Source of the DNA: a virus
Lineage: Duplodnaviria > Caudoviricetes
Strand: one strand, 5' to 3'
IMG/VR virus record: IMGVR_UViG_3300035698_023197
Span: 953 to 64,952 of that record
DNA length: 64,000 nucleotides
A program made the translations under genes and the position numbers. Below, in pieces: positions 11,757-48,429 of the stretch. Below the pieces are notes generated by a model. It worked only from the letters and a program-made list of their open reading frames with translations. It searched no databases and was not told the DNA's origin. Every line of letters begins with the position of its first letter. The stretch's first letter is position 1.

Positions 11757-11778
11757 CAGCAGTACTCTACTTATTGGT

Positions 11779-12426
11779 GTGAAATCGATAATCAAACTGA
11801 AAACAGCCCAAAAGCTTGCGAAGGAAAGAAGGATGTGCCATTCTTGTTTCAAGGTCCCTGTGACCACAACCTTGGTATGTGAAAAATGTACCACCAAGAA
11901 GCGTATGAGTAACACCGCGATGCGAAGAATGATGAGACATGTAGTACTCACATACTACAGTAAAACGAAACCACCATCGTGTGAAAACTGTGGGGAGTGT
12001 TGGAGTGGGTGTTTGAATGTAGATCATGTCAACGGTGGTGGGCACCAGCACAAAAAAGAGATCAAAGGTGACTTGTCAACGTGGTTGTATCGGCAAGGAC
12101 TGCCAAGTGGGTATCGAATATTGTGCGCCAACTGCAATCAAAGTGTAGCCTCGTACGGGGGCGATTTGGGTGCGTTGAACGCAGCACGAGAAGATACTAG
12201 GCCTTGGTATGACGAGTTTAATTCAGAAGGTACAAAGCGCAATTGGGGTGTGGTGATAGCCATGCGAATAGATTTGTCTCGTGGTTTTACGTTTGTGCAA
12301 CTAGCCGAAAAATATGGTGGCTCTCCTGGATCTGTGCACTGTGCTTTAAAGAAAAGATGGCAATGGCCTGATAGTATCAACAGTAAGGTAACTGTGGGGG
12401 AGGAAGGTCTACAAAAGGTGAAGTAG
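11779..12426 (+). CDS. HNH homing endonuclease with zinc fingers and C-terminal HTH
   Basis: CHSC/CEKC, CENCG..LNVDHVNGGG..H, ILCANCN, C-terminal QLAEKYG HTH; antisense to its neighbours; start estimated. Confidence 0.85.
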   Translation: MKSIIKLKTAQKLAKERRMCHSCFKVPVTTTLVCEKCTTKKRMSNTAMRRMMRHVVLTYYSKTKPPSCENCGECWSGCLNVDHVNGGGHQHKKEIKGDLSTWLYRQGLPSGYRILCANCNQSVASYGGDLGALNAAREDTRPWYDEFNSEGTKRNWGVVIAMRIDLSRGFTFVQLAEKYGGSPGSVHCALKKRWQWPDSINSKVTVGEEGLQKVK

Positions 12427-13150
12427 GTGCGTCGCCATCCTCTGGGCCATCGCCTCCTGTTTGTCCCGGTCCCGGGTTGTTCGATGGGGTCCCCGGTGCA
12501 CCGCCCGCGCTGACTGGTGCTTCTGCTGCAGGTGATCCGTCGTACGGCAACGCCCCTGCTCCGGTGTCTGTCAGCGACTCGTGTGGCTTTTGACTGAGTG
12601 GCCAGTCCCCAAGCTGAACCTGCTTGGAAGTTATGGAAATGTGGAGTGGGAATGTAGACTGCTGCCACATGTCTGCGGGGTCGACATGGGCGAGGGTGAT
12701 CTCGTACAACACGTTGCGAAAAGTGAACTCGTCTCCGACCCTAGGCCAGTAATCCTGATTCATCAAATGAGCTACCCCAACCCACAACCGAATACCTTGC
12801 ATTCTGACTGGACCTGCCTCATTGCGCTTCAAGTTTGTTTTATCCTGCTCAATTTTGACTGGTATGTCCAAAAGTCTGAGGAATGTCTTGTGTCGGGCGA
12901 CAGGCTCATTGTAGAGCGTATCCATTGCCGTATCTTGGGGGTCCTCCAACTCTTTAAACGTTAACTTTGGGTAGCAAGATTCGTACCACTCCTCCGTAAT
13001 AAACATCGCTTCTCGATAATCGGCAAGTCCCGACATAGCGAATCGATCTATCGTACCATCATTTTTCCAACTAAGGAAAGCGGCAAGTTGATCTTTACTG
13101 CGGAACAAGCCCTTCTCGTAGGCCAGTGCTGGGTATTTGTTGAATCTCAT
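12377..13150 (-). CDS. Putative neck/head-completion protein (gp14-like)
   Basis: DTLYNE and PRVGD...LYEI motifs resemble T4 gp14-type proteins; Pro/Gly tail; start reassigned to ATG 13150. Confidence 0.5.
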   Translation of the reverse strand: MRFNKYPALAYEKGLFRSKDQLAAFLSWKNDGTIDRFAMSGLADYREAMFITEEWYESCYPKLTFKELEDPQDTAMDTLYNEPVARHKTFLRLLDIPVKIEQDKTNLKRNEAGPVRMQGIRLWVGVAHLMNQDYWPRVGDEFTFRNVLYEITLAHVDPADMWQQSTFPLHISITSKQVQLGDWPLSQKPHESLTDTGAGALPYDGSPAAEAPVSAGGAPGTPSNNPGPGQTGGDGPEDGDAPTSPFVDLPPPQLPYC

Positions 13151-13395
13151 AGACGAACTAGTTTCCCTTCGAGGATACCTAGTTTGTCTTGTACTGTGAC
13201 TGGTAACTTCCAATTTCCTTCTTGCAGCAACTTGAACATCGTCCCCCTATTCATGTCGTGCTGTTCTGCAAGCTGCTGCGTGGTCTTCCCTTTTGCGTGC
13301 TCTTCTCGCAATTTCCACACGGTTGCCCAATTCCTTTTTCACCGCCGTGAAATTGCTTATCTTCCCACCAGGGTATTTTCGCTTTCCGTCCGTAT
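13147..13395 (-). pseudogene. HTH fragment related to the C-terminus of the neighbouring HNH endonuclease
   Basis: IPWWEDKQFHGGE[K]RNWATVWKLR...QQLAEQH aligns with RPWYDEFNSEGTKRNWGVV...VQLAEKY; 1-nt shift in an A5 run at about 13335. A 57-aa GTG ORF (13147-13320) remains. Confidence 0.55.
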
Positions 13396-13400
13396 TACAT

Positions 13401-13433
13401 AGAAAGGGCCACACCTTTCGATGCGGCCCTTAA
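13401..13433 (-). terminator. 33-bp hairpin element, copy 1
   Basis: Minus strand TTAAGGGCCGCATC-GAAA-GGTGTGGCCCTTTCT; 10-bp stem with two G-U pairs and a GNRA loop. Confidence 0.7.
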
Positions 13434-13481
13434 TATGCGAACTGTTGCTGATCGTTAAACTTCACAAGGATACGTACTGGC

Positions 13482-14219
13482 CTACAACAGCTCGTTGAAA
13501 GAATCGGGCGTCATCGCTCGGACCCGGGTATCGACAGGTGGTGGGTCGACAGCATCCTTGACGCTGTCTGACGCGGCCATCCATATCTCTCTCGGAGACG
13601 CATTAACCCGCCAGTCCAAAAAGGATACGATCCACACTTCATCCATGTAGTCAGTGATCCCACCGCCATGATGTGCCAGCCCAAGTATGCGGTCTACATC
13701 CAAGATCTTGCTCTTCATGGAGTTGTGGTGAAGCATATTCCTCCACGTATCGAGTAAGCCGCGCCACACCCCATCCTTTGCAGTGAACCACTGGTAATGT
13801 CCTTGCCCAGATTCCTCAGGCCAGTTTATGAAATGCTCTATAGCAGCTGGGAGTTCCTGCAAAGAAATATCGTGGGTGGCCACGTTTTCCCACTCGTCAT
13901 TCCACTCTACCCATCCTGCGTCTTTGGCCTGCGCCATCAGTTTCCCATGCAACTCCTGTCCTTGTTGTATACGAGCGATATATCGTATTTCGTTTGGGTG
14001 GGTAGGCGGCGGCGCACCATTCACTTTTACAGGGTCTTGGGGGCGGTCTGGTAGTATGCGATTCAACACCATCCGCCCCAATTGCCTCATTAAGTCATCC
14101 CACACATACTCGACATGATCTACTGCAACGCGATTGCGCGTACCAGCATATTCGATTGCGTAGAACGACGCCAAGTCCCTACGGGTTATAGATTCTAGTA
14201 ACCGACTGCTAAACTTCAC
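13482..14219 (-). CDS. Hypothetical protein, putative internal head protein
   Basis: GTG start (MKFSSRLLES), TATATAT 5 nt upstream; D..L.L.H motif shared with 53260..54102. Confidence 0.7.
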   Translation of the reverse strand: MKFSSRLLESITRRDLASFYAIEYAGTRNRVAVDHVEYVWDDLMRQLGRMVLNRILPDRPQDPVKVNGAPPPTHPNEIRYIARIQQGQELHGKLMAQAKDAGWVEWNDEWENVATHDISLQELPAAIEHFINWPEESGQGHYQWFTAKDGVWRGLLDTWRNMLHHNSMKSKILDVDRILGLAHHGGGITDYMDEVWIVSFLDWRVNASPREIWMAASDSVKDAVDPPPVDTRVRAMTPDSFNELL

Positions 14220-14229
14220 AAGGATATAT

Positions 14230-14262
14230 AGAAAGGGCCGCATCTTTCGATGCGGCCCTTAA
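14230..14262 (-). terminator. 33-bp hairpin element, copy 2
   Basis: Minus strand TTAAGGGCCGCATC-GAAA-GATGCGGCCCTTTCT, perfect stem. Confidence 0.7.
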
Positions 14263-14288
14263 CACTAAAGGTTGGAATAGAAGGGGTC

Positions 14289-14753
14289 CTATTCGGGCCA
14301 AGTGTTCGGAAGACCACCGATTGGAGTAGAGCCAAGGCCAACTCCGAAGTCTTTTCCGTAGCCGGATTTGCCGATGATGCCCAGTTCGGCCTGCCCAAAA
14401 TAAGGTTTTCCATTAAGCGACATATCCATCCGGACTTTGCCACCACCAGCGGTAGTGACGCGTCCTTGGATTTTGAGCAGGAGCTTGTTCGACTGAACCG
14501 TTGCACGCTGTTGTCCACCAGCAGCAAGAGCAATAACGGATGCGCCGGAAATCTTGGTCCAGGTGGATGCGTCGTCGGACTCGTAGACTTCGAACTCAAA
14601 AGCACGGCCAGTTTGTGGCTCGCCAGCGAAGTTGAGTTCGGTCTGGTCTTGGAAGTTGAGGTCAATCTTACCGACCTTCTCGCGAAGTTGGAAGAGTTGG
14701 ATGTCAGTCAGCGTGGTGCTATTGACGCCGAGATAGGAGGAAGTTGCGATCAT
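14289..14753 (-). CDS. Hypothetical beta-rich protein, probably virion-associated
   Basis: Alternating hydrophobic pattern; followed by the same hairpin element that follows the major capsid gene. Confidence 0.65.
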   Translation of the reverse strand: MIATSSYLGVNSTTLTDIQLFQLREKVGKIDLNFQDQTELNFAGEPQTGRAFEFEVYESDDASTWTKISGASVIALAAGGQQRATVQSNKLLLKIQGRVTTAGGGKVRMDMSLNGKPYFGQAELGIIGKSGYGKDFGVGLGSTPIGGLPNTWPE

Positions 14754-14765
14754 GGTAGTGGTAGT

Positions 14766-15062
14766 TTAGTTATTGTCTGGTGCAAGTTTGAAAAAGATGT
14801 TGCGTCTCCCATTCACCATCCACTGCCTAGCAGTAGCGATAAAGGGATTTTCGTAGGACTCCTGCCGAAGCTTGTCAACAGCTACTTCACGTAGCGTCTC
14901 GAAGTGATCTTCGCCGGGAGGCTCCAGCCGCACTAACAAGGATTTGTCGTTTTCGTCCCACACCATACCAATTACGGCCTGGTGTGTGAAAACCTCTCTT
15001 TCGAAGACTCGCGCAATGCGGTCAACAAAAGGGTTCTTGTCTTTTTTCAATGCTGCTGCCAT
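14766..15062 (-). CDS. Hypothetical protein
   Basis: ATG ORF in the operon; TAAGTAT upstream. Confidence 0.65.
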   Translation of the reverse strand: MAAALKKDKNPFVDRIARVFEREVFTHQAVIGMVWDENDKSLLVRLEPPGEDHFETLREVAVDKLRQESYENPFIATARQWMVNGRRNIFFKLAPDNN

Positions 15063-15134
15063 CTTTGGACTTATACTTATGCCAGATATTGGCTATTAAA
15101 CAAACCGATACCAAAATCTTGGTATTCTCCTGTA

Positions 15135-15503
15135 CTACGCCTGGGTATTCGCCACTTGCTTCATGGCGTCGTCAAATTCTCCGAGAACCTGCTTCACTTC
15201 CAACGCAGCACACATCATCAACTGTTGGTGCTCGAGGGACTGCCCACCAAATGCGCCTTTTTCGTTGGCGTGGACGTACGCCGCGTACAAGTTACGCGCT
15301 GCAGCTGAGGAAACTCCAACCTTCATAGAACCAGGATTTATTGACGGTGCGGGCGGTGGGGTTTGGGCCTCGTTGTTTGATATGTCGGAACTGGTGGGTG
15401 TCTCTGCGGCGTCTGTACTATCTAGTGATTTCATGGTTCTTTGGGATCTATATTCTCTCAGCGCGTTCCAGGGCTTGTGTCCCCACTCATCTTCAACGCT
15501 CAT
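15135..15503 (-). CDS. Hypothetical protein
   Basis: ATGA-coupled to the upstream ORF. Confidence 0.65.
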   Translation of the reverse strand: MSVEDEWGHKPWNALREYRSQRTMKSLDSTDAAETPTSSDISNNEAQTPPPAPSINPGSMKVGVSSAAARNLYAAYVHANEKGAFGGQSLEHQQLMMCAALEVKQVLGEFDDAMKQVANTQA

Positions 15504-15940
15504 GATGTTGTAGAATGTAAACGGAAGAAATCAAAAAGCGCCTCGCAAGACCTCACCCACGAACTGAGTTCGTCGATATCGACGCAAATCTCCATAGTGA
15601 CGGCCTTCTCATAGATGTTGTTGAACACATTCTCAAGCTCTGTTGGATCTGCAAACATATCCTCGATCCGTATCTTGATCTTCTCATTGCGGAGCCGATA
15701 ATCATCTAGGTCGTTTGCGATTACAGTGTCACACCCGATGTCCATCTGGTCGATCAGGTCTTGCTGGGTGTCGCCGAAAAAGAGCGTCACATTACCGAGC
15801 CTCGCCGGGTCGATCTCCATGTTGGCGAGGTCGATTGTGACCACTCCGCCTGTCGACAACGAGTCGATGTCCTTTTCGTTTATCCCGACCGCCAAAATCT
15901 GGCTGTCGCCATCCGTTTCCTCTAATGTGCAGCGTATCAC
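15500..15940 (-). CDS. Hypothetical acidic protein
   Basis: GTG ORF, tightly packed in the operon. Confidence 0.65.
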   Translation of the reverse strand: MIRCTLEETDGDSQILAVGINEKDIDSLSTGGVVTIDLANMEIDPARLGNVTLFFGDTQQDLIDQMDIGCDTVIANDLDDYRLRNEKIKIRIEDMFADPTELENVFNNIYEKAVTMEICVDIDELSSWVRSCEALFDFFRLHSTTS

Positions 15941-15946
15941 GCTTAC

Positions 15947-16741
15947 TTAGAAGCTCAAAAGACCTCTGTTGGCCAACTCTTTCAAAATGACAGCAGCACC
16001 CACTTGTTTGCTGACTGCCGAGCTGCTCCACTTGCCATCCGAGACGTACTTGCCCTTGACATAGTGCTGGGACCCACTCCAAAGGTACGGAGTCGGAACG
16101 TTTTTGTGGTATCGCAGATACCCTGTACCGTTGTATCGCTCGATGGTGTACAACATGTGGTGGACGTTCCAGTCTTTGACGAGGTGGAGTTTGTCGTATC
16201 GGAGAGCGTCTGCCGCGCTGTACTCCCAAGTAAATGGGGGCTTGCCCGTTTTGGGCCTTCCTTTCGGTACCCAGTAGGTGCGCTTGGTCAGTGGGTTGCC
16301 ATTGTGCAGGTGCTTATCGAACCGCAGGCTTGCTTCCATATTGTGAAGCACGGAAATAACGTACCACGGCACTCCGACATTATTCTGAACCTTGGTATAC
16401 CGGGGTATATTTCCCTTGATCTTGTTGGCAGACCAGTTGACTTTTCCTTGCCAATTGCTCCGGACTTTCAGTGTGCGCCACCGTCTCTCATAGTCGCTTT
16501 CCCGGATAGGGACCTTTGGCGACTTGACGACGATTGGTGGGTTGACGTGCGTAGGTACAAACCAGGGGGTCGGCTCTGTCTTTGGTTGACCCGGCTCTGG
16601 GAGCACGTCGTCGAACAAATTCGGAGTTGTTACTCTGGGCGTCGACCCTGGGATATCCGCGTCTGTCTTCGGCGGATCGAACGTCGGGTCATCTTTACAC
16701 CCAACTGAAAGCAAGATTATAAGAAGCGCGAGCGTTTTCAT
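15947..16741 (-). CDS. Lysozyme-family endolysin (COG5526-like) with lipoprotein signal
   Basis: H.ME...F..HLHNG.PL..RT..VP.GRP, ERYNG.GY, PTPYLWSGS..Y..GKYV.DG; N-terminal MKTLALLIILLSVG-C. Confidence 0.85.
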   Translation of the reverse strand: MKTLALLIILLSVGCKDDPTFDPPKTDADIPGSTPRVTTPNLFDDVLPEPGQPKTEPTPWFVPTHVNPPIVVKSPKVPIRESDYERRWRTLKVRSNWQGKVNWSANKIKGNIPRYTKVQNNVGVPWYVISVLHNMEASLRFDKHLHNGNPLTKRTYWVPKGRPKTGKPPFTWEYSAADALRYDKLHLVKDWNVHHMLYTIERYNGTGYLRYHKNVPTPYLWSGSQHYVKGKYVSDGKWSSSAVSKQVGAAVILKELANRGLLSF

Positions 16742-17136
16742 TACTTGTTGAGTATCCAGATGAGAAAAATGAAGACACCGAGGAAGGTGAGGAGGCGTGC
16801 TGTCGGAGTTAGCGCTTGAAAATCATCGACAAACTGCTTTTTCACTCTCGGATCGTCTTTGCTGGTGTAGGCTTCCAATGTCGGAAAAGCGGCGTGGATG
16901 AGAGCCCAGACAGCCAGTACGCTTCCGGTCAATCCGAGAATCCTCATAATGAGCATGTGGACGAAGCTGAAATCGACGGAACGCGCAGACGGGTCAATGA
17001 ACCCGATGACGAGTGGGTAAGCCCAGAATAGGGCTAGCACGACTATCGCTAGCAATGCCTCCTTTGAGTTACGGAAGAAGAGCCAAATAGCCTTGACGCT
17101 ATCTCCGAGTTTGCAATCTTTATCGTCGTCTGACAT
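16741..17136 (-). CDS. Putative holin (3 TM segments)
   Basis: Three hydrophobic helices; coupled to the endolysin gene. Confidence 0.55.
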   Translation of the reverse strand: MSDDDKDCKLGDSVKAIWLFFRNSKEALLAIVVLALFWAYPLVIGFIDPSARSVDFSFVHMLIMRILGLTGSVLAVWALIHAAFPTLEAYTSKDDPRVKKQFVDDFQALTPTARLLTFLGVFIFLIWILNK

Positions 17137-17142
17137 GGTTAT

Positions 17143-17655
17143 TTAGAGTGGTAAGATTGATTTTTTCAGCATGAGTGCACCTGCACCCACCATAACGATA
17201 TTTAGGATACCGGAGCCCCAAAGCCATTTGCTCTTCCGTTTCGCGCTAGCTTCTGCCTTGACGCGCTTCTCGAATTCCTTGTTGTACCAAGATTGCCAGT
17301 GCTTCAGCTTCTCGGTAGCAGCGAGCAATTCGCCTTGTGCCTTCTCGACTTTGAGTTTTAGAGCACTGAAGGCTTCTTCGAGTACCTTGGTTTGCTCCTG
17401 GGCAGCTGCTGCTTGTTTTTGCAGATCTTTGACGAGACCGTCCTCAGGATACTTTTCAACGACCTTTTCGACGGTACGGTATACCGTGTTGGTCTTAATA
17501 GTGGTCGCTTTAACGGCCTCTTCAGCTTTTTTGAGTTCAAGCTTGACAACAGTTGGTTTTGCTACCGGCCCTCGTGGGTCCACTGCCTTCCTGCAAGCGG
17601 ACAGTCCACTGAATGCGAGTACCATTACGATGGCGTATAGGATGTTCGTTTTCAT
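17143..17655 (-). CDS. Putative unimolecular spanin
   Basis: Lipobox LSA-C, coiled-coil middle, C-terminal TM (WLWGSGILNIVMVGAGALML); in the lysis cassette. Confidence 0.6.
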   Translation of the reverse strand: MKTNILYAIVMVLAFSGLSACRKAVDPRGPVAKPTVVKLELKKAEEAVKATTIKTNTVYRTVEKVVEKYPEDGLVKDLQKQAAAAQEQTKVLEEAFSALKLKVEKAQGELLAATEKLKHWQSWYNKEFEKRVKAEASAKRKSKWLWGSGILNIVMVGAGALMLKKSILPL

Positions 17656-17709
17656 CCCACATAACTAGAGAATCCGGCCAATCTGACATCAATCCATGTG
17701 GTGTCAAGT

Positions 17710-17988
17710 CTATTGGGGAGGCGTCTCGGTCCATGCGGCCTGTGTGACCTTGTTGAACTCATCGATGCCGCCGAGTGCTGCCTTCATCACAACCGCTCTA
17801 CGTTGGCGAGTGTTGCCTTCGACGTGTTCAGCGGCAAAGTTACCCAGCGATATGTGCGCACCGTATCCGTTGACTGCCCATGCGGTGCTTGCCCCAACCG
17901 ATACGGTGTACCTACCCATGTGGTATTCGGTTTTGACGTTTGGGGCTCGGGATTTCTCGAGCAATCGGACGAACTGGTGCGTGTTCAT
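17710..17988 (-). CDS. Hypothetical protein (MNTHQFVRLLE N-terminus)
   Basis: ATG ORF downstream of a sigma70 promoter. Confidence 0.7.
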   Translation of the reverse strand: MNTHQFVRLLEKSRAPNVKTEYHMGRYTVSVGASTAWAVNGYGAHISLGNFAAEHVEGNTRQRRAVVMKAALGGIDEFNKVTQAAWTETPPQ

Positions 17989-17999
17989 GCGTTACTTTT

Positions 18000-18028
18000 A
18001 GTATAACACAGGGTTGCGACTTTGTCAA
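18000..18028 (-). promoter_or_regulatory. Sigma70-type promoter
   Basis: TTGACA-17 nt (ending CTGTGT)-TATACT. Confidence 0.85.
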
Positions 18029-18745
18029 TTACTGCAAGAAGCTCTTCGCGTCGAAAGCGTCCGATTCTGGCTCGTTGTCGTCGTGGTTGTATTCTGGCTC
18101 CTCAGGTTCGTCGCCCGGTTGGGTTTCAAACTCCGCACCGGGGACGTCTGGGATGTCTCCAATACCAGATAGGCCCATTGCCTGTCCGAGTGGTTGGGAA
18201 CCGACGCCGTCGAAGAAAGACATCCACGTGATGTTATCTGGGTCCCAAGCGACCGTGCCGAACATGTGGGCAGCGTCAATGTCTTCGCCATCCCAAGCAT
18301 GCAAAATGGCTTGCATGGCGGTCTTGGACTCCTTGGATTGCAACATCGGGTCTTCACCCATGTAAGCTTTGTGCAGCGTAATGAGGTGCTTCAAGACAGG
18401 GCGATTGGTCTTGGCCAAGTTCCGGAGACTGTCTGATGCGGCTTCCGTGGCGGCTTCTCGGAGTTGAGTCTCAAGGTCAGCCGGTATCTCTTCAGTGAGC
18501 CTGTCGAGGATGGTAGTATAGGCTTCCACGAGAGGGTTGCCGCTCGGGTAGCTAAACACTGAACCCTGTTGCAAGTCCGCAATACGGACTGGTTCGAATG
18601 CAGTGTTCATGGCCAACCCACCGTCTTCGAGGATCAAAAGACCCTCATCTGGCGTGCAGTGTCCCGGAGTTCCGTGGCCAGCGGCCCAGTGCTCCAGAAA
18701 AGCGCGTTCAATTGAGTTGACTCGGAAAGTGTCAAGCGTATTCAT
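18029..18745 (-). CDS. Acidic hypothetical protein, putative head core protein
   Basis: Repeated FLE/ILE/LVE/LTE/LRE motifs; TAGGTAT upstream. Confidence 0.65.
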   Translation of the reverse strand: MNTLDTFRVNSIERAFLEHWAAGHGTPGHCTPDEGLLILEDGGLAMNTAFEPVRIADLQQGSVFSYPSGNPLVEAYTTILDRLTEEIPADLETQLREAATEAASDSLRNLAKTNRPVLKHLITLHKAYMGEDPMLQSKESKTAMQAILHAWDGEDIDAAHMFGTVAWDPDNITWMSFFDGVGSQPLGQAMGLSGIGDIPDVPGAEFETQPGDEPEEPEYNHDDNEPESDAFDAKSFLQ

Positions 18746-18754
18746 CGAGAATAC

Positions 18755-20165: not shown

Positions 20166-21056
20166 ATGGACCCAAACAACATCACGGCCAGGATCATTGC
20201 CGACAGCCAGAACACTCACGGCCAACGACTTACCAGCTTTCTTCTCCGATATCCGAGGTTCATCCATTCGGAATTGATGACGCACCGGATGCTGAGCCGC
20301 AATGCGGCGTCGAGCAGAGCTATCCCAGTCAAGCGGATGATCGCCACTATCAGAGCCAACCCGGCGCTTCCTGAATGGTGGGGAGCCACACAGCGCGGCA
20401 TGCAAGCCAAGGCCCAGGTCGACGAGGCGGCACTGGCCATCTGCAAGGATTTGTGGATGCAACAACGAGACCTAACCGTCGAAACTGTCTCGCAGCTTTT
20501 GGACGCCGGGTTGCACAAGCAGATCGCTAACCGACTCCTTGAACCGTGGAGCCACATCACGGTACTCGTCACTGCTACCTGTTTCAGCAATTTTTTCTCG
20601 CTGAGAGCCCACCCCGATGCCCAACCCGAATTTCAAGTACTGGCCTACAAGATGCTCCAACGATTTTTGGGGCAGTCTCCAGAGGATGTCGCTGAGGGTG
20701 AGTGGCATATGCCGTTCGGCGATCAGATGGACGACAGCATGGACCTCCAGCAGCGGCTCAAAGTCGCCACGGCTCGCTCCGCCCGACTGAGCTACAACAC
20801 ATTCGACGGCGTCATCGACCCACTCAAGGACTACGAGTTGCATGACGATCTGGCAGCTTCTGGCCACTGGTCCCCCTTCGAACATTGTGCCATGGCCGAC
20901 CCTGTCGTCGTTAGTTCCGGCAACTTCCGTGGCGGCTGGCGTCAGTACCGTGCCACCTTCGAACGGGAGAACAGGACAGCAGTCGACCTCGACAGAATCC
21001 TTGCCGACAAGCCCGACTGGATCGACACTGCAGAGCCCGTGGAGGTTGCGGCGTGA
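20166..21056 (+). CDS. thyX: Flavin-dependent thymidylate synthase
   Basis: YPRFIHSELMTHR..SRNAASSRAIP, HKQ.ANRLLEP, LR.H.DAQPE, H.SPFEH. Confidence 0.93.
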   Translation: MDPNNITARIIADSQNTHGQRLTSFLLRYPRFIHSELMTHRMLSRNAASSRAIPVKRMIATIRANPALPEWWGATQRGMQAKAQVDEAALAICKDLWMQQRDLTVETVSQLLDAGLHKQIANRLLEPWSHITVLVTATCFSNFFSLRAHPDAQPEFQVLAYKMLQRFLGQSPEDVAEGEWHMPFGDQMDDSMDLQQRLKVATARSARLSYNTFDGVIDPLKDYELHDDLAASGHWSPFEHCAMADPVVVSSGNFRGGWRQYRATFERENRTAVDLDRILADKPDWIDTAEPVEVAA

Positions 21057-27266: not shown

Positions 27267-27274
27267 CTATCCTT

Positions 27275-34375: not shown

Positions 34376-34428
34376 AATTATCCAAAGTCAAAAAGAACGC
34401 GGTTGCCTGTGCTGTCCACAGTCATTAG

Positions 34429-37026: not shown

Positions 37027-37060
37027 AATGATCTCAGATATTTAGCGTTCTTTATACCTG

Positions 37061-39910: not shown

Positions 39911-40064
39911 CCTCTTCCTCTTCCGTTGAAAAGGCAAGGTCTTTCTTTTTGAGCCCACGTCGACGTACCACTCGGTCATCAACGATCTCACCAGATGCGG
40001 TGATGTGTTGGGGTCTGCCCTTGCGGTGGGCGAGGCGTTCAGCCTTCCTCTTGGCACTAGCCAT
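39891..40064 (-). CDS. Small basic protein
   Basis: TAATG-coupled start, MASAKRKAERLAHRKG. Confidence 0.55.
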   Translation of the reverse strand: MASAKRKAERLAHRKGRPQHITASGEIVDDRVVRRRGLKKKDLAFSTEEEEATEESP

Positions 40065-41740
40065 TAGGCGCAATCAGGACACTGACACTTGCCAGAATTA
40101 CCGCAGTCATTGCAAAAACGCTCACTATCATTTTTGCCGTGGCAACTGTAGCACTCGATTTCTCGTGCACCGTTGCAAGATCCGCAGCGCTCTTCGCTAT
40201 CACGAGGACCTCCGGACTCGTTCACCATGAGAGCGCCATTGGCCATCTCTTGTTCGATCACGGAGTCACGGACGATGGCAATACGACCTTCATCATTCTC
40301 GGAGAAAGAGGGATAGTACATTATGACAGCCTCTTCACCGTCTTTGCCGTCCCGTGCTTCTTTCACCATCCCAGGATACTGCTTCTGTAGACCGTCAGGA
40401 AGTTCACGGGGGCGAACAGATTCGAAAAATTCTTCATCGCCTTCATTGCAATCAATGCAAAGTCCAGCCTCGCCACAACTGTCGCATATTGAACGTTCAC
40501 ACCTTTCGCAATGGTCCATCTCGTCTTCGAACCCCTCGTTTCCGCAAGGGCATCCAATAAACTCTCCTTCCAGCATGGCGTTGAACGCATCAGCAGACTC
40601 CCCAAAGTGGAGGTACTCGTCCTCACTCTTTACACCAGCTTTCTTTTTCAGCTGTTGGACGCGCTTGTAAAGCTTGTCGTGCGTCTTGTTGGAAGCGGAC
40701 TGCATCTGCCGATTGAGCTTGCGAAGTAGTTTCAGCGTATCTTCTCGGGATGCTTCTTCTATGTCGTCGTCATCGTCTTCTTCACCGGAGAAGTGGAACA
40801 GGATCTGCTCGATGTCGGTAAGGTACTCGTGTGTGATCTCCTCTTTTTCGATAGACATCTGCAGCCACTCGATGGACCAAATGCCGGTGCCGCGAATCTC
40901 GTCGTTGGATGATCTCGCACGAAAGTGGATGTCGCCGGGACGATTCATCGCCTGTTCGTCGGTGTAGTTACCCTCCCAAGCTTGGAAAATCAGCGTGTCC
41001 CCGGTTTTATTGAATTGGTCCTGATCAGCAGTGATCGTGATACGATCTTTTTGGAGGAATGCCTCCAAGTCTTCGAGATACTCTTTGTCGTTCTCAAATT
41101 CCGGCTCGTCGTGGTGGTCGCCTTTCTCGCCCCAACTCTCGCCGACGGTGTAAGGATCTTCGTCTTCTTCGACGACTTCTTCAGGAACAGTGTAAACGGT
41201 TTTACCTTCGAGGAGCATACCACCAATATAACACGGATTCGACGGTTTGTCAAGTTTCCGTACAATACCAAGCCAGTTCTGCCGCTCTACGCCTTCACCA
41301 TAAACGCCAGGAAGTCCCCGTGTCGTTTCCTTCTCGCTGCCATATGCACTGGGGTTCTCATCTTCTTCCTCATCTCCAAGCGCAACGTCGTCCTTCGGGA
41401 TGCTGGTGATGCGGTTCGGATTTTCCGGGTCCACAACGTCAACTTCGCGACCGTCGCTGCGGACAACCTGAAGCTTTTGGATCTCACCATCAGTGACGCG
41501 AGCGACCTCTTGGCCGGGTTGATGCTCATCGTCTACCCCGTAGGCCTCAGACTGAAGGCCGATGATCGGGTTTGACTCTAGTTGCTTGCGCTTGCGCGAT
41601 TCAACGTAGTAAAAACCGTTGTGGGTGTTGGATACTAGGAAACCAGTACTGACAGCCTCATTGATCTGAGCGTCATTGTATCCGTGAGATAAGAGGCGGG
41701 CACGAGACCACGCTCCGTTGATAGTGATGAGAGGTTTCAT
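40064..41740 (-). CDS. Acidic multidomain protein with C-terminal zinc fingers, putative head core/cargo protein
   Basis: Many [LIV]xE[SAG] motifs; Cys clusters, including DnaJ-like CxxCxG repeats. Confidence 0.7.
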   Translation of the reverse strand: MKPLITINGAWSRARLLSHGYNDAQINEAVSTGFLVSNTHNGFYYVESRKRKQLESNPIIGLQSEAYGVDDEHQPGQEVARVTDGEIQKLQVVRSDGREVDVVDPENPNRITSIPKDDVALGDEEEDENPSAYGSEKETTRGLPGVYGEGVERQNWLGIVRKLDKPSNPCYIGGMLLEGKTVYTVPEEVVEEDEDPYTVGESWGEKGDHHDEPEFENDKEYLEDLEAFLQKDRITITADQDQFNKTGDTLIFQAWEGNYTDEQAMNRPGDIHFRARSSNDEIRGTGIWSIEWLQMSIEKEEITHEYLTDIEQILFHFSGEEDDDDDIEEASREDTLKLLRKLNRQMQSASNKTHDKLYKRVQQLKKKAGVKSEDEYLHFGESADAFNAMLEGEFIGCPCGNEGFEDEMDHCERCERSICDSCGEAGLCIDCNEGDEEFFESVRPRELPDGLQKQYPGMVKEARDGKDGEEAVIMYYPSFSENDEGRIAIVRDSVIEQEMANGALMVNESGGPRDSEERCGSCNGAREIECYSCHGKNDSERFCNDCGNSGKCQCPDCA

Positions 41741-42303
41741 TGTCCTAGACCTAAAGCGTCCGCAACATCTTCCGGATTTTCGGGCTCCGGTGGGTTCATT
41801 TCGTCTTCTTCCTCCTCCTCAGGCTCCTCCTCTGCAGGGGGCTCCTCCGGAGCAGGTTCTTCAACTTCCTCTTCGTCTCCAAAGTCCGTTTCAGCCCCTT
41901 CCGGGTCGATGCGGTTGTGGAGTTCTCTCATACCAGAAATAAGCTTGTCAACGTACGTCCTCAGAGCTTCAGATGCTCCTTCTCGTACGTCTTCCAAGGA
42001 TGATGCCACGCGTTGGGCTTCAGCCCGCACATCATCGTTAGTGATCGATGTGTTGCCAGCGTCAAGTTCGTGTTGCTTCAGGATGCCGAGCATACCCTCA
42101 ACGAACATACGTTCGCTAGACTCCGGGGGGAGTTCCACGAGTTCATCGCGCTCTTGAGTGAAAAACTCAACGGCGGAGATCCAGACCTCGTTGTACGCTT
42201 GAATAGCCTCGCCAGCCTCCTCATGGAGAGGACGACGCGCCTTGTACTTATAGCCGAGAGTGTAATTCTGGCTCTTTTTCCAATAAGCTTCTGAGATGCC
42301 CAT
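41737..42303 (-). CDS. Acidic hypothetical protein
   Basis: MGISEA N-terminus, Glu/Pro-rich tail. Confidence 0.7.
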   Translation of the reverse strand: MGISEAYWKKSQNYTLGYKYKARRPLHEEAGEAIQAYNEVWISAVEFFTQERDELVELPPESSERMFVEGMLGILKQHELDAGNTSITNDDVRAEAQRVASSLEDVREGASEALRTYVDKLISGMRELHNRIDPEGAETDFGDEEEVEEPAPEEPPAEEEPEEEEEDEMNPPEPENPEDVADALGLGQ

Positions 42304-42324
42304 ATGCTTTTGGGGGAACCTAAA

Positions 42325-42591
42325 TTAGGACGTTTCCTGCTCGATCATCTTGATGAGCTTGGATGAATCCTCAATGAGATTGGCTCCGTCTTCCAAGCTG
42401 CGATAGACGAGTCCCAAACGCGTGGTCGGGAAAGCGTACTTGCTTTTTGGAGAAGCGTGGTGCTCGGCGGCTCCAGCAAACTTGTTACCTTTAACAGGTT
42501 TCCACCCAGCCCCAGCAAGTGGGTTCTTGATGGGCTTGGAGTCAAGTGGATTGACGGACGGATGAGCTTCTTTGAGTGATTTCTTGGCCAT
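42325..42591 (-). CDS. Small hypothetical protein (MAKKSLKEAHPSV)
   Basis: TACGTAT upstream. Confidence 0.65.
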   Translation of the reverse strand: MAKKSLKEAHPSVNPLDSKPIKNPLAGAGWKPVKGNKFAGAAEHHASPKSKYAFPTTRLGLVYRSLEDGANLIEDSSKLIKMIEQETS

Positions 42592-42625
42592 GATGGAAAA
42601 AATACGTAGTTCTGAAAAGTAAGAC

Positions 42626-43195
42626 TTAGCTTACCATCTGCGCGGGATAAGCCCGATCAACGGACAGGGTCATGGTAACGAGAGCGTTAGTGCCCTCGTC
42701 ATCGTGATCAAGATCGTCGTAGTCGAGAGTACTTGGAAAAACACCGTCGAGACGCCAGACCCGGTTGCGGAACGACTGAGCGTCTACCGTACCGGGGCAA
42801 GAGGAGTTGGCCATTCCAGGAGGAAGGAGGAAGATGTCAGCCTGACGCTTGTAATCCTTGGCATAACCAATAGCGCCAGTGTCTGGGCACCAGACCTGCT
42901 TGAACCAGCTTGATAGCACCGGGATGACTTGTCTGTCGATGTAGTCGTGATAGACTGCCGTCTGATCCGCGAACGGAGTCACAGAACCAGCGTACTTCAT
43001 TGTCTCGTTGAAGTATTTGATTCCTTGGACGTTAATCGAAGGTGGCGGCACCGTGGCGCTTTTCAGCGAGAGCACCAACGTCTCGGAGTCACCAAGGCCG
43101 TAGATGACGAGAGCGTAGTTACTCTTGCGCTGAGGTTCAAAAGAACCCCCTTGGTGAAGGAGGACGGACCCTGCGAATTCGCTTAGCGTAGTCAT
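42626..43195 (-). CDS. Tail tube protein (gp19-like)
   Basis: FEPQR..N, KYAG, W...V..P.TG..G...DYK, W.L.G.FP; follows the sheath gene. Confidence 0.9.
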   Translation of the reverse strand: MTTLSEFAGSVLLHQGGSFEPQRKSNYALVIYGLGDSETLVLSLKSATVPPPSINVQGIKYFNETMKYAGSVTPFADQTAVYHDYIDRQVIPVLSSWFKQVWCPDTGAIGYAKDYKRQADIFLLPPGMANSSCPGTVDAQSFRNRVWRLDGVFPSTLDYDDLDHDDEGTNALVTMTLSVDRAYPAQMVS

Positions 43196-43229
43196 GTGTT
43201 AATACGTAGTGTGTGGCAGACTGTGAGTC

Positions 43230-45638
43230 TTACTGGGTGTCGACCGCAAGGCCGTTGTTGTCGAGGGCAATGAACTCGTCAACGTTTGCACCAGAGGCGA
43301 GCAACGTGAAGTCGAGGATGATCTTCTCTGCAGATTTCACCGGGATGAGGTAGATCTTGGCGACCATCTCATTGTTGTTCCGGCGACTTGGCGTGTTCGT
43401 GGTTTCGTCGCAAACGACCTTGTACCACTCGAGTGCTCGGCGTCCCTTGAGTCCCTTGAGGAACGGGTCGACGAGGTTGATGAACTGACCCCAAAGAATG
43501 GCGTCATTCTGTTCGAAGACCAGTTTGCGGGAAGCGGTCGAAACGGACTTCTCGATGAAGAACAGGAGACGGCGTACGTTGACCCGGTCCAGTGCGGACG
43601 GGTGGCGTTGCAGTGTACGTTGACCGTAAACCACAATGCCGTCGTTGCTGAATTTCTGGATCGGATTGATCGCGTTACCGTTTCCGGGACCGTAGAAGTA
43701 GTCGACGTCGCCCTGGGTGACCTCGTACTCGACGCCGATAGCGTTGGGGACCTGGCCTCGGATGATACCGGCAGGGGCAAACCAGGTCTCACCAACTTCG
43801 TCGTTGTAGGCGATGATACCAGGCACCACGCTCGATGGTGGCAACCAAAGCTCGCGGCGAGTGTAAGGATCGTACTGCTTCACCCAAGGGTAGTAGAGCG
43901 CGGCCCGGTTGGTAACAAAAGCAGCATGCAACCCGGTGTAGTCGCCTTGGCCGTTGTGCCAGTCGGTGACTTCCTGAGGTGTGAGGCCGAAAGGAGGATC
44001 GAAAATACCAAGGCAATCATTCCGTTCGTCGAGGATGGCGATTTCTTCCACCAACACTCCGGCCAAGGAAATACCCGGCACGGTCAGCATGTTGATATCG
44101 TATCGATCTGAACGGCGGAAGTTTTGCAGTCCCTTGTACTGGCCAGTGATGGCGTTGATGGTGCCGATGTACTCAGCGCTTGAAGGATTGGCTCCGTTGT
44201 ACCCAAGAGGATTTTCGAAGGTAAGAGCAGCGGAAGTGTCGCTATCTTCGATCTTGACCTGAGTTTCCAGCCCCATGATGAGACGTGGGTTATTCGGGAA
44301 TTTGAGGCGATCGTAGGTCGACATCGGCTGTTCACCGCTAGCACCAAGGTACTCAGCGTGCACGTAATTCGAGATCTCGGTAGTCGCGGTGCCAACCACC
44401 TTATCCCAGTAATTGGCGCTCGAAGGATCGTAGGCGATGAGGTTTTCGAACACTTCCACCTGACGGCTCTGATAGAGGACGACGAGGCGTTTGGTGTGAA
44501 CTCCAGAAGCGGCCCAAGTTGAGCCAGTAGCGTCAACGAAAGTACACTTGTAAACGACACCGAAATGATTGCCAGAGTTGTTGTCGATGTAACCAAGTTC
44601 TGCACCTGTAGTGATCACCCCGGCGTAACCGGAAACCACGACGTTGGTAGAATCTGTGACAGTGTCGACGGTGTAGTTTCCATCGTAAGCCGAAGTGCCG
44701 TTGATAGTGACACTGTCGCCAACGTTGAAACCAACAGTAGACCCAACCGTCAAGGAGAGGTCGCCGCTGACGTCAGCAGTAGCAGAAATGGCAGAGGCAG
44801 CAGAATCAAAGTTGACGCCGCGAGTGTCTCCAACTCGGGTACCTTCCACGGTGGAAAGAGCGAGCAGGTCAATCTTGGTGTCTACCGAAGTCTTGCTTGG
44901 TGCCACGCCCTGAAGGGGGACACCATTGGTGCTCTCGATTGGGTCGCCAGTGGCCGGATTGAGGTTCTGGAATTGGCCTCCATCCTCGATCCTGACTTGA
45001 ATACCTTGGCTGGTACCGAAGTTGGCGTGTTCACCAGGGTCTTTGGCGGTAAATTTGACGATACCGTTGACCAGTCCGTTGCGGCGGTTGTAAGCGAAGA
45101 CTTCACCGGGAGTGGCTGCACCAGACTCGGCGGAATGATCCACTTTAGAGTCGCTGGTGTTGGAATCGTCGTACACCGAAAGAAGAGGAATGTTGACGGT
45201 GATGACATTTCCGGTGACGTCCAACGCTTCAGCGTTGGCTGTAGAAGGCTTGCCCGTCTGAGTAAGGCGAACAAAGTCTCCTGCTTGGATTGGGTGACCG
45301 GATGCAACGGTGAAGCTGTAGATGCGACCTTGGACGTCGGCAGCGCCGAGTGACTCAATAGTGGTGACACCGACGTCGTACTCTTTTGCTACCCGAACGT
45401 ACCACAGCTGATTGCCACGGCGGAGGTAGTTGAGTGCGGCGTGAGGACCGTACATGTTGACATCGGGCTCGCCAAACGTTTCGAGGAAACGCTCTGGAGT
45501 GGTGATGAGGGTGGGCTCGTTGAGAGGACCGCGCTTAGCCGCTCCTACCATACCCACAGAGGTCTGGATTAGGGCTGCGACGTAATCGCTAAAATCTCTC
45601 TCAAGAACGTAGACACCGGGAGCAATGAACTGGGGCAT
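43230..45638 (-). CDS. Contractile tail sheath protein (gp18-like)
   Basis: PGVYV.E.DFS, GP...P.LIT, YYPW, WFAPAG..RG, INPI, G.RTL, RVNVRRL, FE.ND. Confidence 0.96.
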   Translation of the reverse strand: MPQFIAPGVYVLERDFSDYVAALIQTSVGMVGAAKRGPLNEPTLITTPERFLETFGEPDVNMYGPHAALNYLRRGNQLWYVRVAKEYDVGVTTIESLGAADVQGRIYSFTVASGHPIQAGDFVRLTQTGKPSTANAEALDVTGNVITVNIPLLSVYDDSNTSDSKVDHSAESGAATPGEVFAYNRRNGLVNGIVKFTAKDPGEHANFGTSQGIQVRIEDGGQFQNLNPATGDPIESTNGVPLQGVAPSKTSVDTKIDLLALSTVEGTRVGDTRGVNFDSAASAISATADVSGDLSLTVGSTVGFNVGDSVTINGTSAYDGNYTVDTVTDSTNVVVSGYAGVITTGAELGYIDNNSGNHFGVVYKCTFVDATGSTWAASGVHTKRLVVLYQSRQVEVFENLIAYDPSSANYWDKVVGTATTEISNYVHAEYLGASGEQPMSTYDRLKFPNNPRLIMGLETQVKIEDSDTSAALTFENPLGYNGANPSSAEYIGTINAITGQYKGLQNFRRSDRYDINMLTVPGISLAGVLVEEIAILDERNDCLGIFDPPFGLTPQEVTDWHNGQGDYTGLHAAFVTNRAALYYPWVKQYDPYTRRELWLPPSSVVPGIIAYNDEVGETWFAPAGIIRGQVPNAIGVEYEVTQGDVDYFYGPGNGNAINPIQKFSNDGIVVYGQRTLQRHPSALDRVNVRRLLFFIEKSVSTASRKLVFEQNDAILWGQFINLVDPFLKGLKGRRALEWYKVVCDETTNTPSRRNNNEMVAKIYLIPVKSAEKIILDFTLLASGANVDEFIALDNNGLAVDTQ

Positions 45639-45711
45639 AACAAATTATGATTTTAGGTAGTTGTGTTGCTTTCTATAACAGAACCAATCAACTTCACGAA
45701 ATACTTAAAAT

Positions 45712-46476
45712 ATGAACAAATCGAAAATCAAAGACTTTGTAGAAAAATGGGAACCGTGCCCTTACCAAGGGTTTAGTTTGTATGTTATTAGTAACCTTGG
45801 TAAAGTGTGCCGCGTTAAAAACAATGTAAGGCTTGCGCCCTTGACGCCGCAAGAGGGTGGAGGGAAAACTGAATGATCTCGACGATATCTCGTTGTCACT
45901 TTATATGGCGTCAAAAAACGGAAAATGTTCAAACTTCATCGTCTTGTGTACGCTGCTTTCAATGGGATGATAACCCCGGAAGACGTTGTAGATCACAAGG
46001 ATCGGAACAAACGCAACAATCATCTTTCCAATATAAGATTAGTAGATAATAGGGGCATACAAAAGAACAATTCATCAGGGTATAGGGGTGTCGCCAAGAA
46101 GAATGGCCTGTGGGGTGCTGTTATTGGTAAACTCAAAAAGACTGTGTATTTGGGTCAATATGGCAACCCTATTGATGCGGCTTTGGCTTATGACTGGGAA
46201 GCTAGAAAACTGTGGGGGAATGAGGCAGCACTGAATTTTCCCGATAAAATCCCAGACAATCATATTGAAAATCCAACCCCCACTTCAAAAGTAACACTCA
46301 GCACAAATTCGACAGGTTATCGTGGTGTAACTTGTCGATATCGGGCCACAATTTATCACGAAGGTAAACAACGCCATTTGGGGTACTTCGACTCCCCCCA
46401 AGAAGCTGCTCTAGCTTATAACGAAGCAGCATTAAGGTTGAAAGGAGATAAAGCCGTATTAAACGACATCGACTAG
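45712..46476 (+). pseudogene. NUMOD4-HNH-AP2-AP2 homing endonuclease with in-frame TGA at 45874
   Basis: E.W.P...Y.ISNLG.V (NUMOD4), HRLV..AF, VDH.DRNK.NN..SN.R, two SG/TGYRGV..LG.F..AA.AY domains; ATG 45712 is in frame with 45925; AT-rich. Confidence 0.85.
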
Positions 46477-46504
46477 ACGGTCGACGGGGATGGAATTAGA
46501 CGGG

Positions 46505-47623
46505 TTAAACCGAAAGGGAAGAGCTCGACGACGCGGAAGATTCAGAACTGGAAGAAACAGACGATAGAGAAGACAAGGACGAGGCCGACGATACTGACGA
46601 CGCCGACGAGGTAGATTGTGAGGATGAAGAGGAGGAGAGGCTGGAAAGAGAACTCAAACTCGAAGAAGATGAACTCAAACTCGAAGAAGATGAACTCACA
46701 CTGGATGAGCTGGAAGAAGAAATGGACGAAGAGGACGAGTTGGAAGAAGACGAATTGGACGAAGAAGACGATGAAGTTACGCTCTCACTAGAGGAAGACG
46801 ATGAGGAATTAGCATCTGCTTCTTGATATTGGCGTCTGTTACCATCGTTGTATAACCACCGTATGTTTGCAGAGGTAAGCGCTGTGCTCCAGAAAGTGCC
46901 TTCATCCACTTTTCCTTTCATGTAGGTTGTCCCGACACGGCCAATGTCTAAAGACGGTGCCACAATTTCTGTACCACCAAAAGTGGCCACACTCTGAAAG
47001 ACTCCATCGACGTATAACTTTAAAAGGTTTCCATCACGAACGCCTACGACAAAGTGCCAGTCGTCATCAGCGTACGCGGCAACCGAAGACGCTTGATACG
47101 ATGGACTTTCCATCCTGAATCTGAATACATCATCGGGTGTCTTCATCAGCGTCCACGCCCTCTGAGATGAGGTCCACTGGGATATGATACCACCAGAAGT
47201 TCCGAGGTTGTGATTGACCCATATACCAACGGTAAAGTCGGCCTGGTGTATTATGTTCGGAAACGATAATCTGTGAAGACGTGCGGTTGATGATACGAGT
47301 TCTGCAACACCGCCAATACCATCTGTAACACTATTAACGGTTCCATCCTTCAGCAGGGGTTGCGCCCCGAAGGCACCAACGTGAGAGTCTACCCATGTAC
47401 TCGGGCTCCCCACATCATCCAAAGCCCACCACGCCTTGAGTTCTACTGTACCAGGACTAATGATAGAAGATAACGAGGATGACGAACTATTACTAGAAGA
47501 ACTGCTACTATATGAACTGCTACTCGAATCTGATGAGGAAGAGGAGGACGAAGAATATACCACACCCGCCTGACCCTCTTGCCAGTGGGCTCCGAGTAAT
47601 GGTCTTACGCGTCGATAACTCAT
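46505..47623 (-). CDS. LamG/concanavalin-like domain protein flanked by poly-Ser tracts
   Basis: FTVGIWV, WHFVVGV.DG..LKLYVDG, IG....KG.VDE..FW..ALT; two long Ser tracts. Confidence 0.85.
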   Translation of the reverse strand: MSYRRVRPLLGAHWQEGQAGVVYSSSSSSSSDSSSSSYSSSSSSNSSSSSLSSIISPGTVELKAWWALDDVGSPSTWVDSHVGAFGAQPLLKDGTVNSVTDGIGGVAELVSSTARLHRLSFPNIIHQADFTVGIWVNHNLGTSGGIISQWTSSQRAWTLMKTPDDVFRFRMESPSYQASSVAAYADDDWHFVVGVRDGNLLKLYVDGVFQSVATFGGTEIVAPSLDIGRVGTTYMKGKVDEGTFWSTALTSANIRWLYNDGNRRQYQEADANSSSSSSSESVTSSSSSSNSSSSNSSSSSISSSSSSSVSSSSSSLSSSSSSLSSLSSLSSSSSSQSTSSASSVSSASSLSSLSSVSSSSESSASSSSSLSV

Positions 47624-48051
47624 CCTCCTATAGTAGCCCCCGGAAAGAGTATGGCAACCTGAATGTTGGCGTCATCCTCTGCTTCAGATTGGGTGAACCC
47701 GGAGCCAGTGACATCCCACTCGAAACTCCAGTCGTCGCTGTTGATACGGGGATAAGTCACGTTGAAAGTAAAGATCCAAGATTTTTCGGGGCTACCATCC
47801 TCAACCAAAATGAAGATACCATCCTCGGTCAGTAGCGGGATGTCATTTTCGCCGTCTAAAGTGACTGGGGCTGCAGCTTTGATAGCTTTTGCCAGTATCT
47901 CACCCGCAATAGTCAATTCGTATGTGTAAACGTCGACTCGCTCTAGTGTTCCGTCCTGAACGAGCGGGAACGAGGAGACGAAGTCACGAATCACTACCGT
48001 ACCATTCTGGTACGCGAGCAAAACGTACGTGTTCTGTTGATCAGTCAGCAT
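47620..48051 (-). CDS. Hypothetical protein, probably virion-associated
   Basis: LLTEDG..ILVED motif; ATGA-coupled to the LamG gene. Confidence 0.6.
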   Translation of the reverse strand: MLTDQQNTYVLLAYQNGTVVIRDFVSSFPLVQDGTLERVDVYTYELTIAGEILAKAIKAAAPVTLDGENDIPLLTEDGIFILVEDGSPEKSWIFTFNVTYPRINSDDWSFEWDVTGSGFTQSEAEDDANIQVAILFPGATIGG

Positions 48052-48403
48052 TCAACATTTTCGCAAAGTGTTCCACGGACTCGTCATACGGCATATCCAC
48101 GGCTTTTGCCCAGTCTGGACCGCGCCGAGACAACTCTGCCCGAGTGTTTGCAATCTCTGCCGAACGGTCGATGGCGAGATCGTCATTGTCAAACCGGAAA
48201 CCGTCTGCAAGGCTCATTAGTTGTTCCAAGTTGTAGACAACCGTGCCGTCATCCCCGTACAGTGTAGGACCCATACCATCCTCCTCTGTGAAAAAAGCCT
48301 GTATGAAAGTACCACCACCTCTGGAACCGTTGCGCCGAGCGAGGGGTGCCCCTTGCCAGTCTGGGTTGTCAAAAAACTCAGTGCTTTCATTTACGTTTTT
48401 CAT
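48041..48403 (-). CDS. Hypothetical protein (MKNVNES)
   Basis: TAGCTAT and AGGAG upstream. Confidence 0.65.
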   Translation of the reverse strand: MKNVNESTEFFDNPDWQGAPLARRNGSRGGGTFIQAFFTEEDGMGPTLYGDDGTVVYNLEQLMSLADGFRFDNDDLAIDRSAEIANTRAELSRRGPDWAKAVDMPYDESVEHFAKMLNAD

Positions 48404-48429
48404 CTCCTATAGCTACTTTCTTTAGAAGG

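Follow-up and report, generated by a model that had tools for sequence, protein, structure and literature searches.

T4-type late promoters carry TATAAATA at −10, which is read by gp55 together with gp33 and the gp45 clamp, and the Thermus phage phiYS40 reportedly uses leaderless middle and late promoters. In Deinococcus-Thermus, −10 boxes next to open reading frames (ORFs) give leaderless mRNAs, as outlined in the excerpted text of PMC12340547. For the endonuclease genes of T4, the excerpted sections of PMC2988022 report that intron-encoded endonucleases are closely preceded by a promoter of their own and that seven free-standing genes are promoter-less cassettes using upstream promoters; a bidirectional late promoter is not described in those sections, nor named by any title in a 15-paper listing, while the term “bidirectional promoter” does occur in PMC3606486 (phage rV5). 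Here we analyze a start-proximal element built on the hexamer TANNTA (hereafter the box) in a 64,000-nt stretch of DNA from an uncultured T4-like phage (the window; bases 953-64952 of the 64,952-bp virus record IMGVR_UViG_3300035698_023197). A sequence-only reading of this DNA had proposed that the self-complementary hexamer fires in both directions from small divergent junctions, and that HNH endonuclease genes gained late expression by inserting there. The part of this interpretation that stands is a start-proximal, promoter-like signal ahead of late structural genes, whereas two-way firing is not supported.

TANNTA is special to gene starts in general, not to divergent junctions. Where base composition predicts 195 copies in the window and Markov simulations give ~66-72, 65 are present, in line with a strong depletion of TA dinucleotides. 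Of these 65, 21 lie wholly inside the 40-nt territories upstream of 68 gene starts, which together cover 2,597 of the 64,000 nt, i.e. 4% of the window. By comparison, 15 composition-matched control patterns had 4-10% of their copies in the same territories (pooled 180/2,568; binomial p = 2e-9 for TANNTA against this pooled rate), and other TA-Nk-TA spacings 6-18%. The start-proximal excess was also found in all four relatives available for comparison (G001-G004; found via the gp6-like protein at 42-44% identity, 45-92 kb in length, G+C 44-63%). The 8-mer GTGAAGTT is not itself enriched, with four copies found and 22 of 100 shuffles reaching that number. Since 22 of the 68 genes have a TANNTA no more than 16 nt from their start, about half (~54%) of all two-start junctions should hold one; the observed figure was four of the six divergent junctions of the window, the two exceptions being the wider gaps. 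For the gaps around positions 11768, 37039, 48410, and 45702, the chance of containing a TANNTA was 0.017, 0.029, 0.021, and 0.067 at the genome-wide rate, and 0.09, 0.15, 0.11, and 0.32 at the non-coding rate, respectively.

The working unit is an asymmetric 7-mer, TANNTAT, which is not its own reverse complement. Counting each ATG or GTG that opens at least 60 codons and lies 4-7 nt 3′ of the pattern, in this record and the four relatives, TANNTAT was followed by a start in 67 of 269 cases (15/33 in this record, and 14/98, 23/75, 6/17, and 9/46 in the relatives). The corresponding figure for TANNTA followed by A, C, or G was 24/785 (Fisher p = 5e-24). With a stricter definition of starts, the counts at this distance became 52/269 for TANNTAT, 12/785 for the form lacking the T, and 419/31,554 for the controls, and at 9-20 nt the T-less form likewise remained near control level (30/785 vs. 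911/31,554). It is because T-less hexamers behave like controls that we take the unit to be the oriented 7-mer. A set of 58 one-sided sites from the five genomes, i.e. sites at which only one orientation faces a long ORF, gave the consensus cTAnnTAT, with TAGTTAT and TAATTAT as the commonest forms and TAAATA found twice. In this set, the base after the hexamer is T at 76% of sites (11 of 12 for this record) and another base at the remaining 24%; the base before it is C at 45% and the mirror base A at only 19%. The hexamer is most often separated from the ATG by 5 nt (20 sites) or 6 nt (17 sites). No −35 conservation was detected upstream of TANNTAT, as no position from −50 to −2 exceeded 0.18 bits.

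The spacing between box and start codon equals that of a second promoter form present in this phage family, the sigma70-type TTGACA-N17-TGnTATAAT. Three genomes yielded 24 promoters with an exact TTGACA-N17, and by script count 19 of these place a start codon 5-8 nt beyond the −10 box (20 with the ATG located 6 nt past the box at 41225), so that transcripts from these promoters can have no leader; the TANNTA-to-start register, which peaks at 5-6 nt, is the same. The two forms are found ahead of different genes, with sigma70-type promoters preceding a helicase gene in this record and a DNA ligase gene in G003, and TANNTAT preceding structural genes. Specifically, the box lies ahead of the late virion genes for the protease, tail tube, gp6-like baseplate wedge, fibre, and sheath, as well as ahead of orthologues. 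At the fibre gene it sits 5-6 nt before the start in four of four genomes, a conservation which favours ATG 32358 as the true fibre start in this record. At the gp6-like gene (34645-37026, minus strand; phrog_219, E 1.4e-31), TANNTAT is found on the gene's own strand in five of five genomes, at a junction orthologous to gp6-like/SbcC-like: the SbcC-like gene itself adjoins this junction in the four relatives, and a 139-aa ORF without homologue in these relatives (37061-37480, plus strand) does so here. Two relatives have TAGTTAt ahead of the sheath gene, at distances of 18 and 25 nt. The 818-aa gene (8992-11448, minus strand) has cTACATAt 5 nt ahead of its ATG. Finally, a terminator-like hairpin (14225-14262, minus strand) is followed at once by tttcTATATAt, 5 nt 5′ of GTG 14219, and the 15 nt between hairpin and GTG leave no room for another promoter.

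On balance, we lean towards reading (c)TA-N2-TA-T as a directional, −35-less −10 promoter element that yields leaderless or near-leaderless mRNAs. The element would occupy the −10 position without a −35 box, with transcription beginning at the start codon or a few bases before it, and the products would be leaderless or carry a very short leader. TANNTAT would thus constitute a second promoter class beside TTGACA-N17-TGnTATAAT, with the same geometry, and it may be read by a phage sigma factor or by a modified host polymerase. Promoter function, the leaderless state of the transcripts, and their timing are all inferred from sequence, and several observations weigh against them. Six or seven hexamers include the stop codon of the upstream gene, and several (at the major capsid gene, 15940, and 17136) lie only 0-3 nt from a start codon, too close to act as a −10 box for the ORF in question. 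Conservation of the box is lacking at the major capsid gene, small genes of unassigned timing at 14753-18745 are also preceded by one, and the HNH gene starting at 45712 has A rather than T after its hexamer. A PHROGs search covering 65 window ORFs and, in G003 (88 gene calls), 78 of 84 referenced ORFs gave no match to proteins resembling gp55, gp33, or gp45 or to a late sigma factor, both records being fragments. The gene models providing the 68 starts are home-made, and for the sequencing runs with this DNA only DNA contigs, and no RNA run, are listed.

The alternative that survives best, although we consider it unlikely, is that the box acts on RNA, either as a translation or re-initiation signal independent of a Shine-Dalgarno sequence or as a nuclease cleavage site at which polycistronic mRNA is trimmed before the starts. 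A usable Shine-Dalgarno sequence is absent from most genes of the window, many boxes sit in the 3-20-nt gaps of apparent operons with the upstream stop codon included, and a strand-specific T suits RNA as well as DNA. Against this reading, the register is identical to that of bona fide −10 boxes paired with a −35 element, and one box follows directly after a terminator-like hairpin. In sheath orthologues, moreover, the box lies 15-25 nt upstream with no fixed spacing to the ATG, and we know of no translation signal of this kind. Together, the TA depletion and the missing Shine-Dalgarno sequences suggest a host with Shine-Dalgarno-independent initiation.

Two further types of features adjoin boxes in this family. 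Mini-ORFs of 10-15 codons start at a TANNTA or no more than 4 nt from it, and their ends lie 2-14 nt ahead of, or overlap, the start of a major late gene. This is the case for the portal gene (15-codon mini-ORF 34378-34425, minus strand), the sheath gene (45653-45697, minus strand), and the gp6-like gene in G002 and G004, and such mini-ORFs may represent a leaderless coupling of upstream ORF to gene. The terminator-like hairpin (GGGCCG...CGGCCC followed by TTTC) occurs in three copies (13396-13476, 14212-14262, and 57268-57305), two of which are followed by TANNTA, and at the 13460 copy an 11-codon ORF duplicates the opening codons of the 14219 gene.

We then return to the divergent gaps from which bidirectional use of the hexamer had been proposed. 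Re-reading the sequence confirmed the coordinates of all four hexamers and eight start codons, while the hexamer is alone in its gap at three junctions only. In the 22-nt gap between CAT 11754-56 and GTG 11779-81, TACTTA 11768-73 reads cTACTTAt on the plus strand (element 11768-11774), 5 nt 5′ of GTG 11779 of an HNH-like ORF, and TAAGTAg on the minus strand, 11 nt ahead of ATG 11756; only the plus side fits the 7-mer. The gene on the minus side is a 101-aa ORF with a weak coding score and no assigned function (11451-11756), upstream of the 818-aa gene. In the 34-nt gap between CAT 37024-26 and ATG 37061-63, TATTTA 37039-44 fits on the minus strand (cTAAATAt, 37038-37044), 12 nt 5′ of the gp6-like ATG 37026, and reads TATTTAg on the plus strand, 16 nt ahead of ATG 37061. 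The minus side also fits in the 26-nt gap between CAT 48401-03 and ATG 48430-32, where TAGCTA 48410-15 reads gTAGCTAt (48409-48415), 6 nt 5′ of ATG 48403 of a 120-aa ORF with no assigned function (48041-48403, minus strand), and TAGCTAc on the plus strand, 14 nt ahead of ATG 48430 of a DEDDh 3′-5′ exonuclease gene (48430-49059, plus strand; its domain begins at residue 8, supporting this start).

The fourth gap, between CAT 45636-38 and ATG 45712-14, is wider (73 nt) and less clear-cut. Its TACTTA (45702-45707) could be read on either strand: as aTACTTAa on the plus strand, 4 nt 5′ of the HNH gene ATG 45712, or as tTAAGTAt on the minus strand, which is the fitting side by the T rule, 63 nt ahead of the sheath ATG. 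On that strand it also lies 4 nt ahead of GTG 45697, which opens a 14-codon mini-ORF ending 14 nt 5′ of the sheath ATG, and the 5′ end of this mini-ORF near 45697 is similar to the start of the 14219 gene. This is also the gap in which the hexamer is not alone, since a second one (TAGGTA 45654-45659; cTACCTAa on the minus strand) lies 15 nt 5′ of the sheath ATG 45638. If the 7-mer rule holds, each gap would be served in one direction only, i.e. towards the HNH-like gene from 11768, the gp6-like gene from 37039, the 48403 gene from 48410, and leftward from 45702.

That a single self-complementary hexamer instead forms a shared −10 element, firing divergently and with both neighbours depending on it, appears quite improbable. 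This explanation draws on the lack of any other strong promoter found in the neighbouring coding sequence for the plus-strand genes 37061 and 48430, on the start codons lying 4 nt away on each side of the 45702 hexamer (ATG 45712 and GTG 45697 of the mini-ORF), and on one aTAATTAt in G003 that faces a start on each strand, at 4 and 5 nt; the quarter of one-sided sites that do without the T also speaks for it. Yet T-less hexamers remain at the level of the controls, be it at 4-7 or at 9-20 nt, T is found on both flanks in none of the four junction hexamers, and none of these matches the element consensus in both orientations, as a shared bidirectional core should. Across the five genomes, only two of 20 two-sided hexamers have T on both flanks, and one of these two faces a doubtful 66-aa ORF with a TTG start.

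Two other divergent junctions likewise speak against two-way use. A compact junction in G003 (40395-40420; CAT-AATAA-TAAGTAGTTA-TTATT-ATG) contains two hexamers that overlap by two bases, each being followed by a separate T and lying 5 nt from the ATG that it faces; tight divergent gene pairs in relatives use two boxes rather than one. Within the window, the 7556/7779 gap contains two separate, back-to-back sigma70-type promoters (7612-7772; minus strand 7640-7612, plus strand 7744-7772, the latter 6 nt 5′ of ATG 7779). By these comparisons of sequence, two-way firing is not supported at three junctions and is unproven at 45702. Least probable of all, by a wide distance, is that chance and composition create TANNTA near gene borders through A/T-rich spacers and TAA/TAG stop codons: the pattern is degenerate (16 hexamers) and the copies overlapping stop codons would be accounted for, but at 51% A+T the non-coding DNA of the window is not rich in A/T, the enrichment of matched controls and other spacings is 3-5 times lower, and the T rule holds over five genomes with the Fisher probability given above.

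We next consider the two HNH-type genes, which do start 4-5 nt after TACTTA as originally noticed (5 nt to GTG 11779 and 4 nt to ATG 45712), although their common designation holds to different degrees. The gene at 45712-46476 (plus strand) is a free-standing NUMOD4/HNH_3/AP2 endonuclease gene by profile (HNH_3, E 4.3e-11; AP2, E 1.8e-8; phrog_99, E 1e-45; NUMOD4, E 1.8e-4, below its cut-off). Its single frame is interrupted by a TGA at 45874-76, which divides the NUMOD4 part from the HNH_3/AP2 part; contigs of four runs covering 34000-50500 (depth 0-5 in most bins) included no variant at this TGA and no joint skipping the HNH gene. The ORF at 11779-12426 (plus strand) has a CxxC..DH..N..CxxCN motif but no Pfam match, even with E up to 10, and no PHROGs match. 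Its assignment comes from the motif and from invariant C..C..DH..N..LCxNCN columns common to four homologues, one of which (G003 1527-2162) matches PF01844 (E 8.5e-5). Residues 8-18 of this ORF align with the homologues, which favours GTG 11779 over ATG 11833 as its start. The two genes belong to different families. Neither is present at the same locus in the relatives: in tblastn searches of G001-G004, 45712-46476 had no homologue and 11779-12426 only a 29.5% match at another locus, in G003.

Despite belonging to different families, these genes share a 5′ module composed of TACTTA, a gap of 4-5 nt, the start codon, and AAATCGA(T/A)AATCAAA. The 15-mer AAATCGATAATCAAA (11782-11796, plus strand) lies directly 3′ of GTG 11779, with a second exact copy, AAATCGAAAATCAAA, at 45718-45732 (plus strand), and a pattern search located the exact 15-mer at the 5′ end of each HNH gene and nowhere else; the match rests on this search, as MAFFT misaligned the two 5′ regions. 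Contigs of runs X1 and X3 match the window over 45699-45732 only, with unrelated DNA on both sides (a thin observation, with one contig per run), and the matching stretch is precisely the HNH 5′ module. The module pattern was absent from viral contigs, and four metagenome matches to it were set aside, having no start codon in place and looking like chance. As two unrelated HNH genes carry the same TACTTA and 15-mer at their own 5′ ends, insertion at existing late promoters is disfavoured, and both genes probably brought their own copy of the box in a portable 5′ cassette rather than borrowing a resident one.

A more far-reaching scenario can be assembled from these elements, although as a whole we regard it as highly doubtful. 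In this scenario, a saline-water, T4-like phage family would run most of its late genes from the 7-nt TAnnTAT, starting transcription on the start codon, and its homing endonucleases would travel with a ~34-nt cassette of promoter and first codons. Through endonuclease insertion at a resident promoter, the 45702 hexamer would also serve as −10 box for a leaderless mini-ORF unit that runs divergently and feeds the sheath gene. If so, the 45702 site would be one real shared two-way promoter core.

The window encodes T4-like virion proteins. These include, all on the minus strand, a Gp20-type portal (32384-34375), the tail tube (42626-43195), the tail sheath (43230-45638; phrog_23, E 4.7e-76), a Gp23-type capsid (57333-58769), and the prohead protease (58815-60815), along with PAAR and hub proteins. 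The window also codes for ThyX, a UvsX/RecA-like protein, SSB, helicases, and an SbcC-like protein; a terminase was not seen among its genes. Between residues ~789 and 1183, a family A DNA polymerase (1,878 aa; 21053-26689, plus strand) carries an insert that resembles an intein (Intein_splicing, E 1.6e-8, narrowly missing the Pfam cut-off). The 818-aa gene, which has orthologues in G001 and G003, is tape-measure-like as a lead only, this lead coming from the atlas. It speaks against the idea that the 818-aa or the 918-aa protein might be a phage RNA polymerase, and PDB sequence searches with both proteins gave no match. Genes for a sulfotransferase-family protein and an outer-membrane beta-barrel protein (OMP_b-brl) are found at 54093-56194 (minus strand), and a perfect 27-nt tandem duplication (5662-5715) lies close to the 5′ end of the helicase gene (4018-5745, minus strand).

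Sigma70-type promoters were also noted at two other positions. A near-perfect TTGACA-N17-TATATT promoter (41216-41253, minus strand) lies inside a 558-aa ORF (40064-41740), 6 nt ahead of an in-frame ATG at 41218, and this internal start could yield a 384-aa product. Another sigma70-type promoter (50497-50469, minus strand) lies 6 nt ahead of ATG 50462; together with coding scores, it suggests that 49018-50497 is read on the minus strand and that the plus-strand ORFs at 49066-50475 may not be genes.

The DNA is present in runs labelled salt lake metagenome. An alignment-based scan provided the four usable relatives from 80 loci kept, whereas a single-protein scan of viral contigs found no relative, and near-identity searches in a phage collection gave no match, the capsid protein relatives there all being below 35% identity. 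As the four relatives are rated 23-45% complete, these records and the one analyzed here probably each represent part of a larger genome, with ~150-200 kb as the expected size for this family.

If the box is a promoter, these phages would have a two-class grammar of sigma70-type and TAnnTAT promoters, both adjoining start codons. Start-codon calls could then be corrected (e.g. ATG 32358 of the fibre gene and GTG 14219), gene timing could be predicted in uncultured phages, and a factor reading a −10 box with A at −7 and T at −6 would be implied. The 5′ module common to two unrelated HNH genes further suggests that expression cassettes can be exchanged among homing endonucleases. A two-way, palindromic promoter would have been an uncommon finding, but the evidence goes against it.

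Compared to known systems, the box resembles T4 late promoters in being a short A/T element without a −35 element, placed directly 5′ of many late structural genes and often over the preceding stop codon, and TANNTA matches the final six bases of the T4 octamer. It differs from the octamer itself (TATAAATA or NATAAATA), since the consensus here is cTAnnTAT with TAAATA in only two of 58 sites, and its distance of 5-6 nt to the ATG leaves no leader and no Shine-Dalgarno sequence, unlike at T4 late promoters. A −10 box a few bases 5′ of the start and no ribosome-binding site are instead features of Deinococcus-Thermus, as far as the excerpted text of PMC12340547 describes them; the TTGACA-N17-TATAAT class fits that description exactly, whereas the TANNTAT class does not fit TANNNT. 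As in the excerpted account of T4 (PMC2988022), free-standing endonuclease genes lie between essential genes, but unlike in the promoter-less cassettes described there, the box is part of a 5′ module common to two unrelated HNH genes. By analogy, and within what these excerpts cover, the promoter logic would combine that of T4 late promoters with the “−10 beside the ORF” mode of Deinococcus-Thermus. New here are the box itself, its pairing with sigma70-type leaderless promoters, and the cassette shared by the HNH genes.

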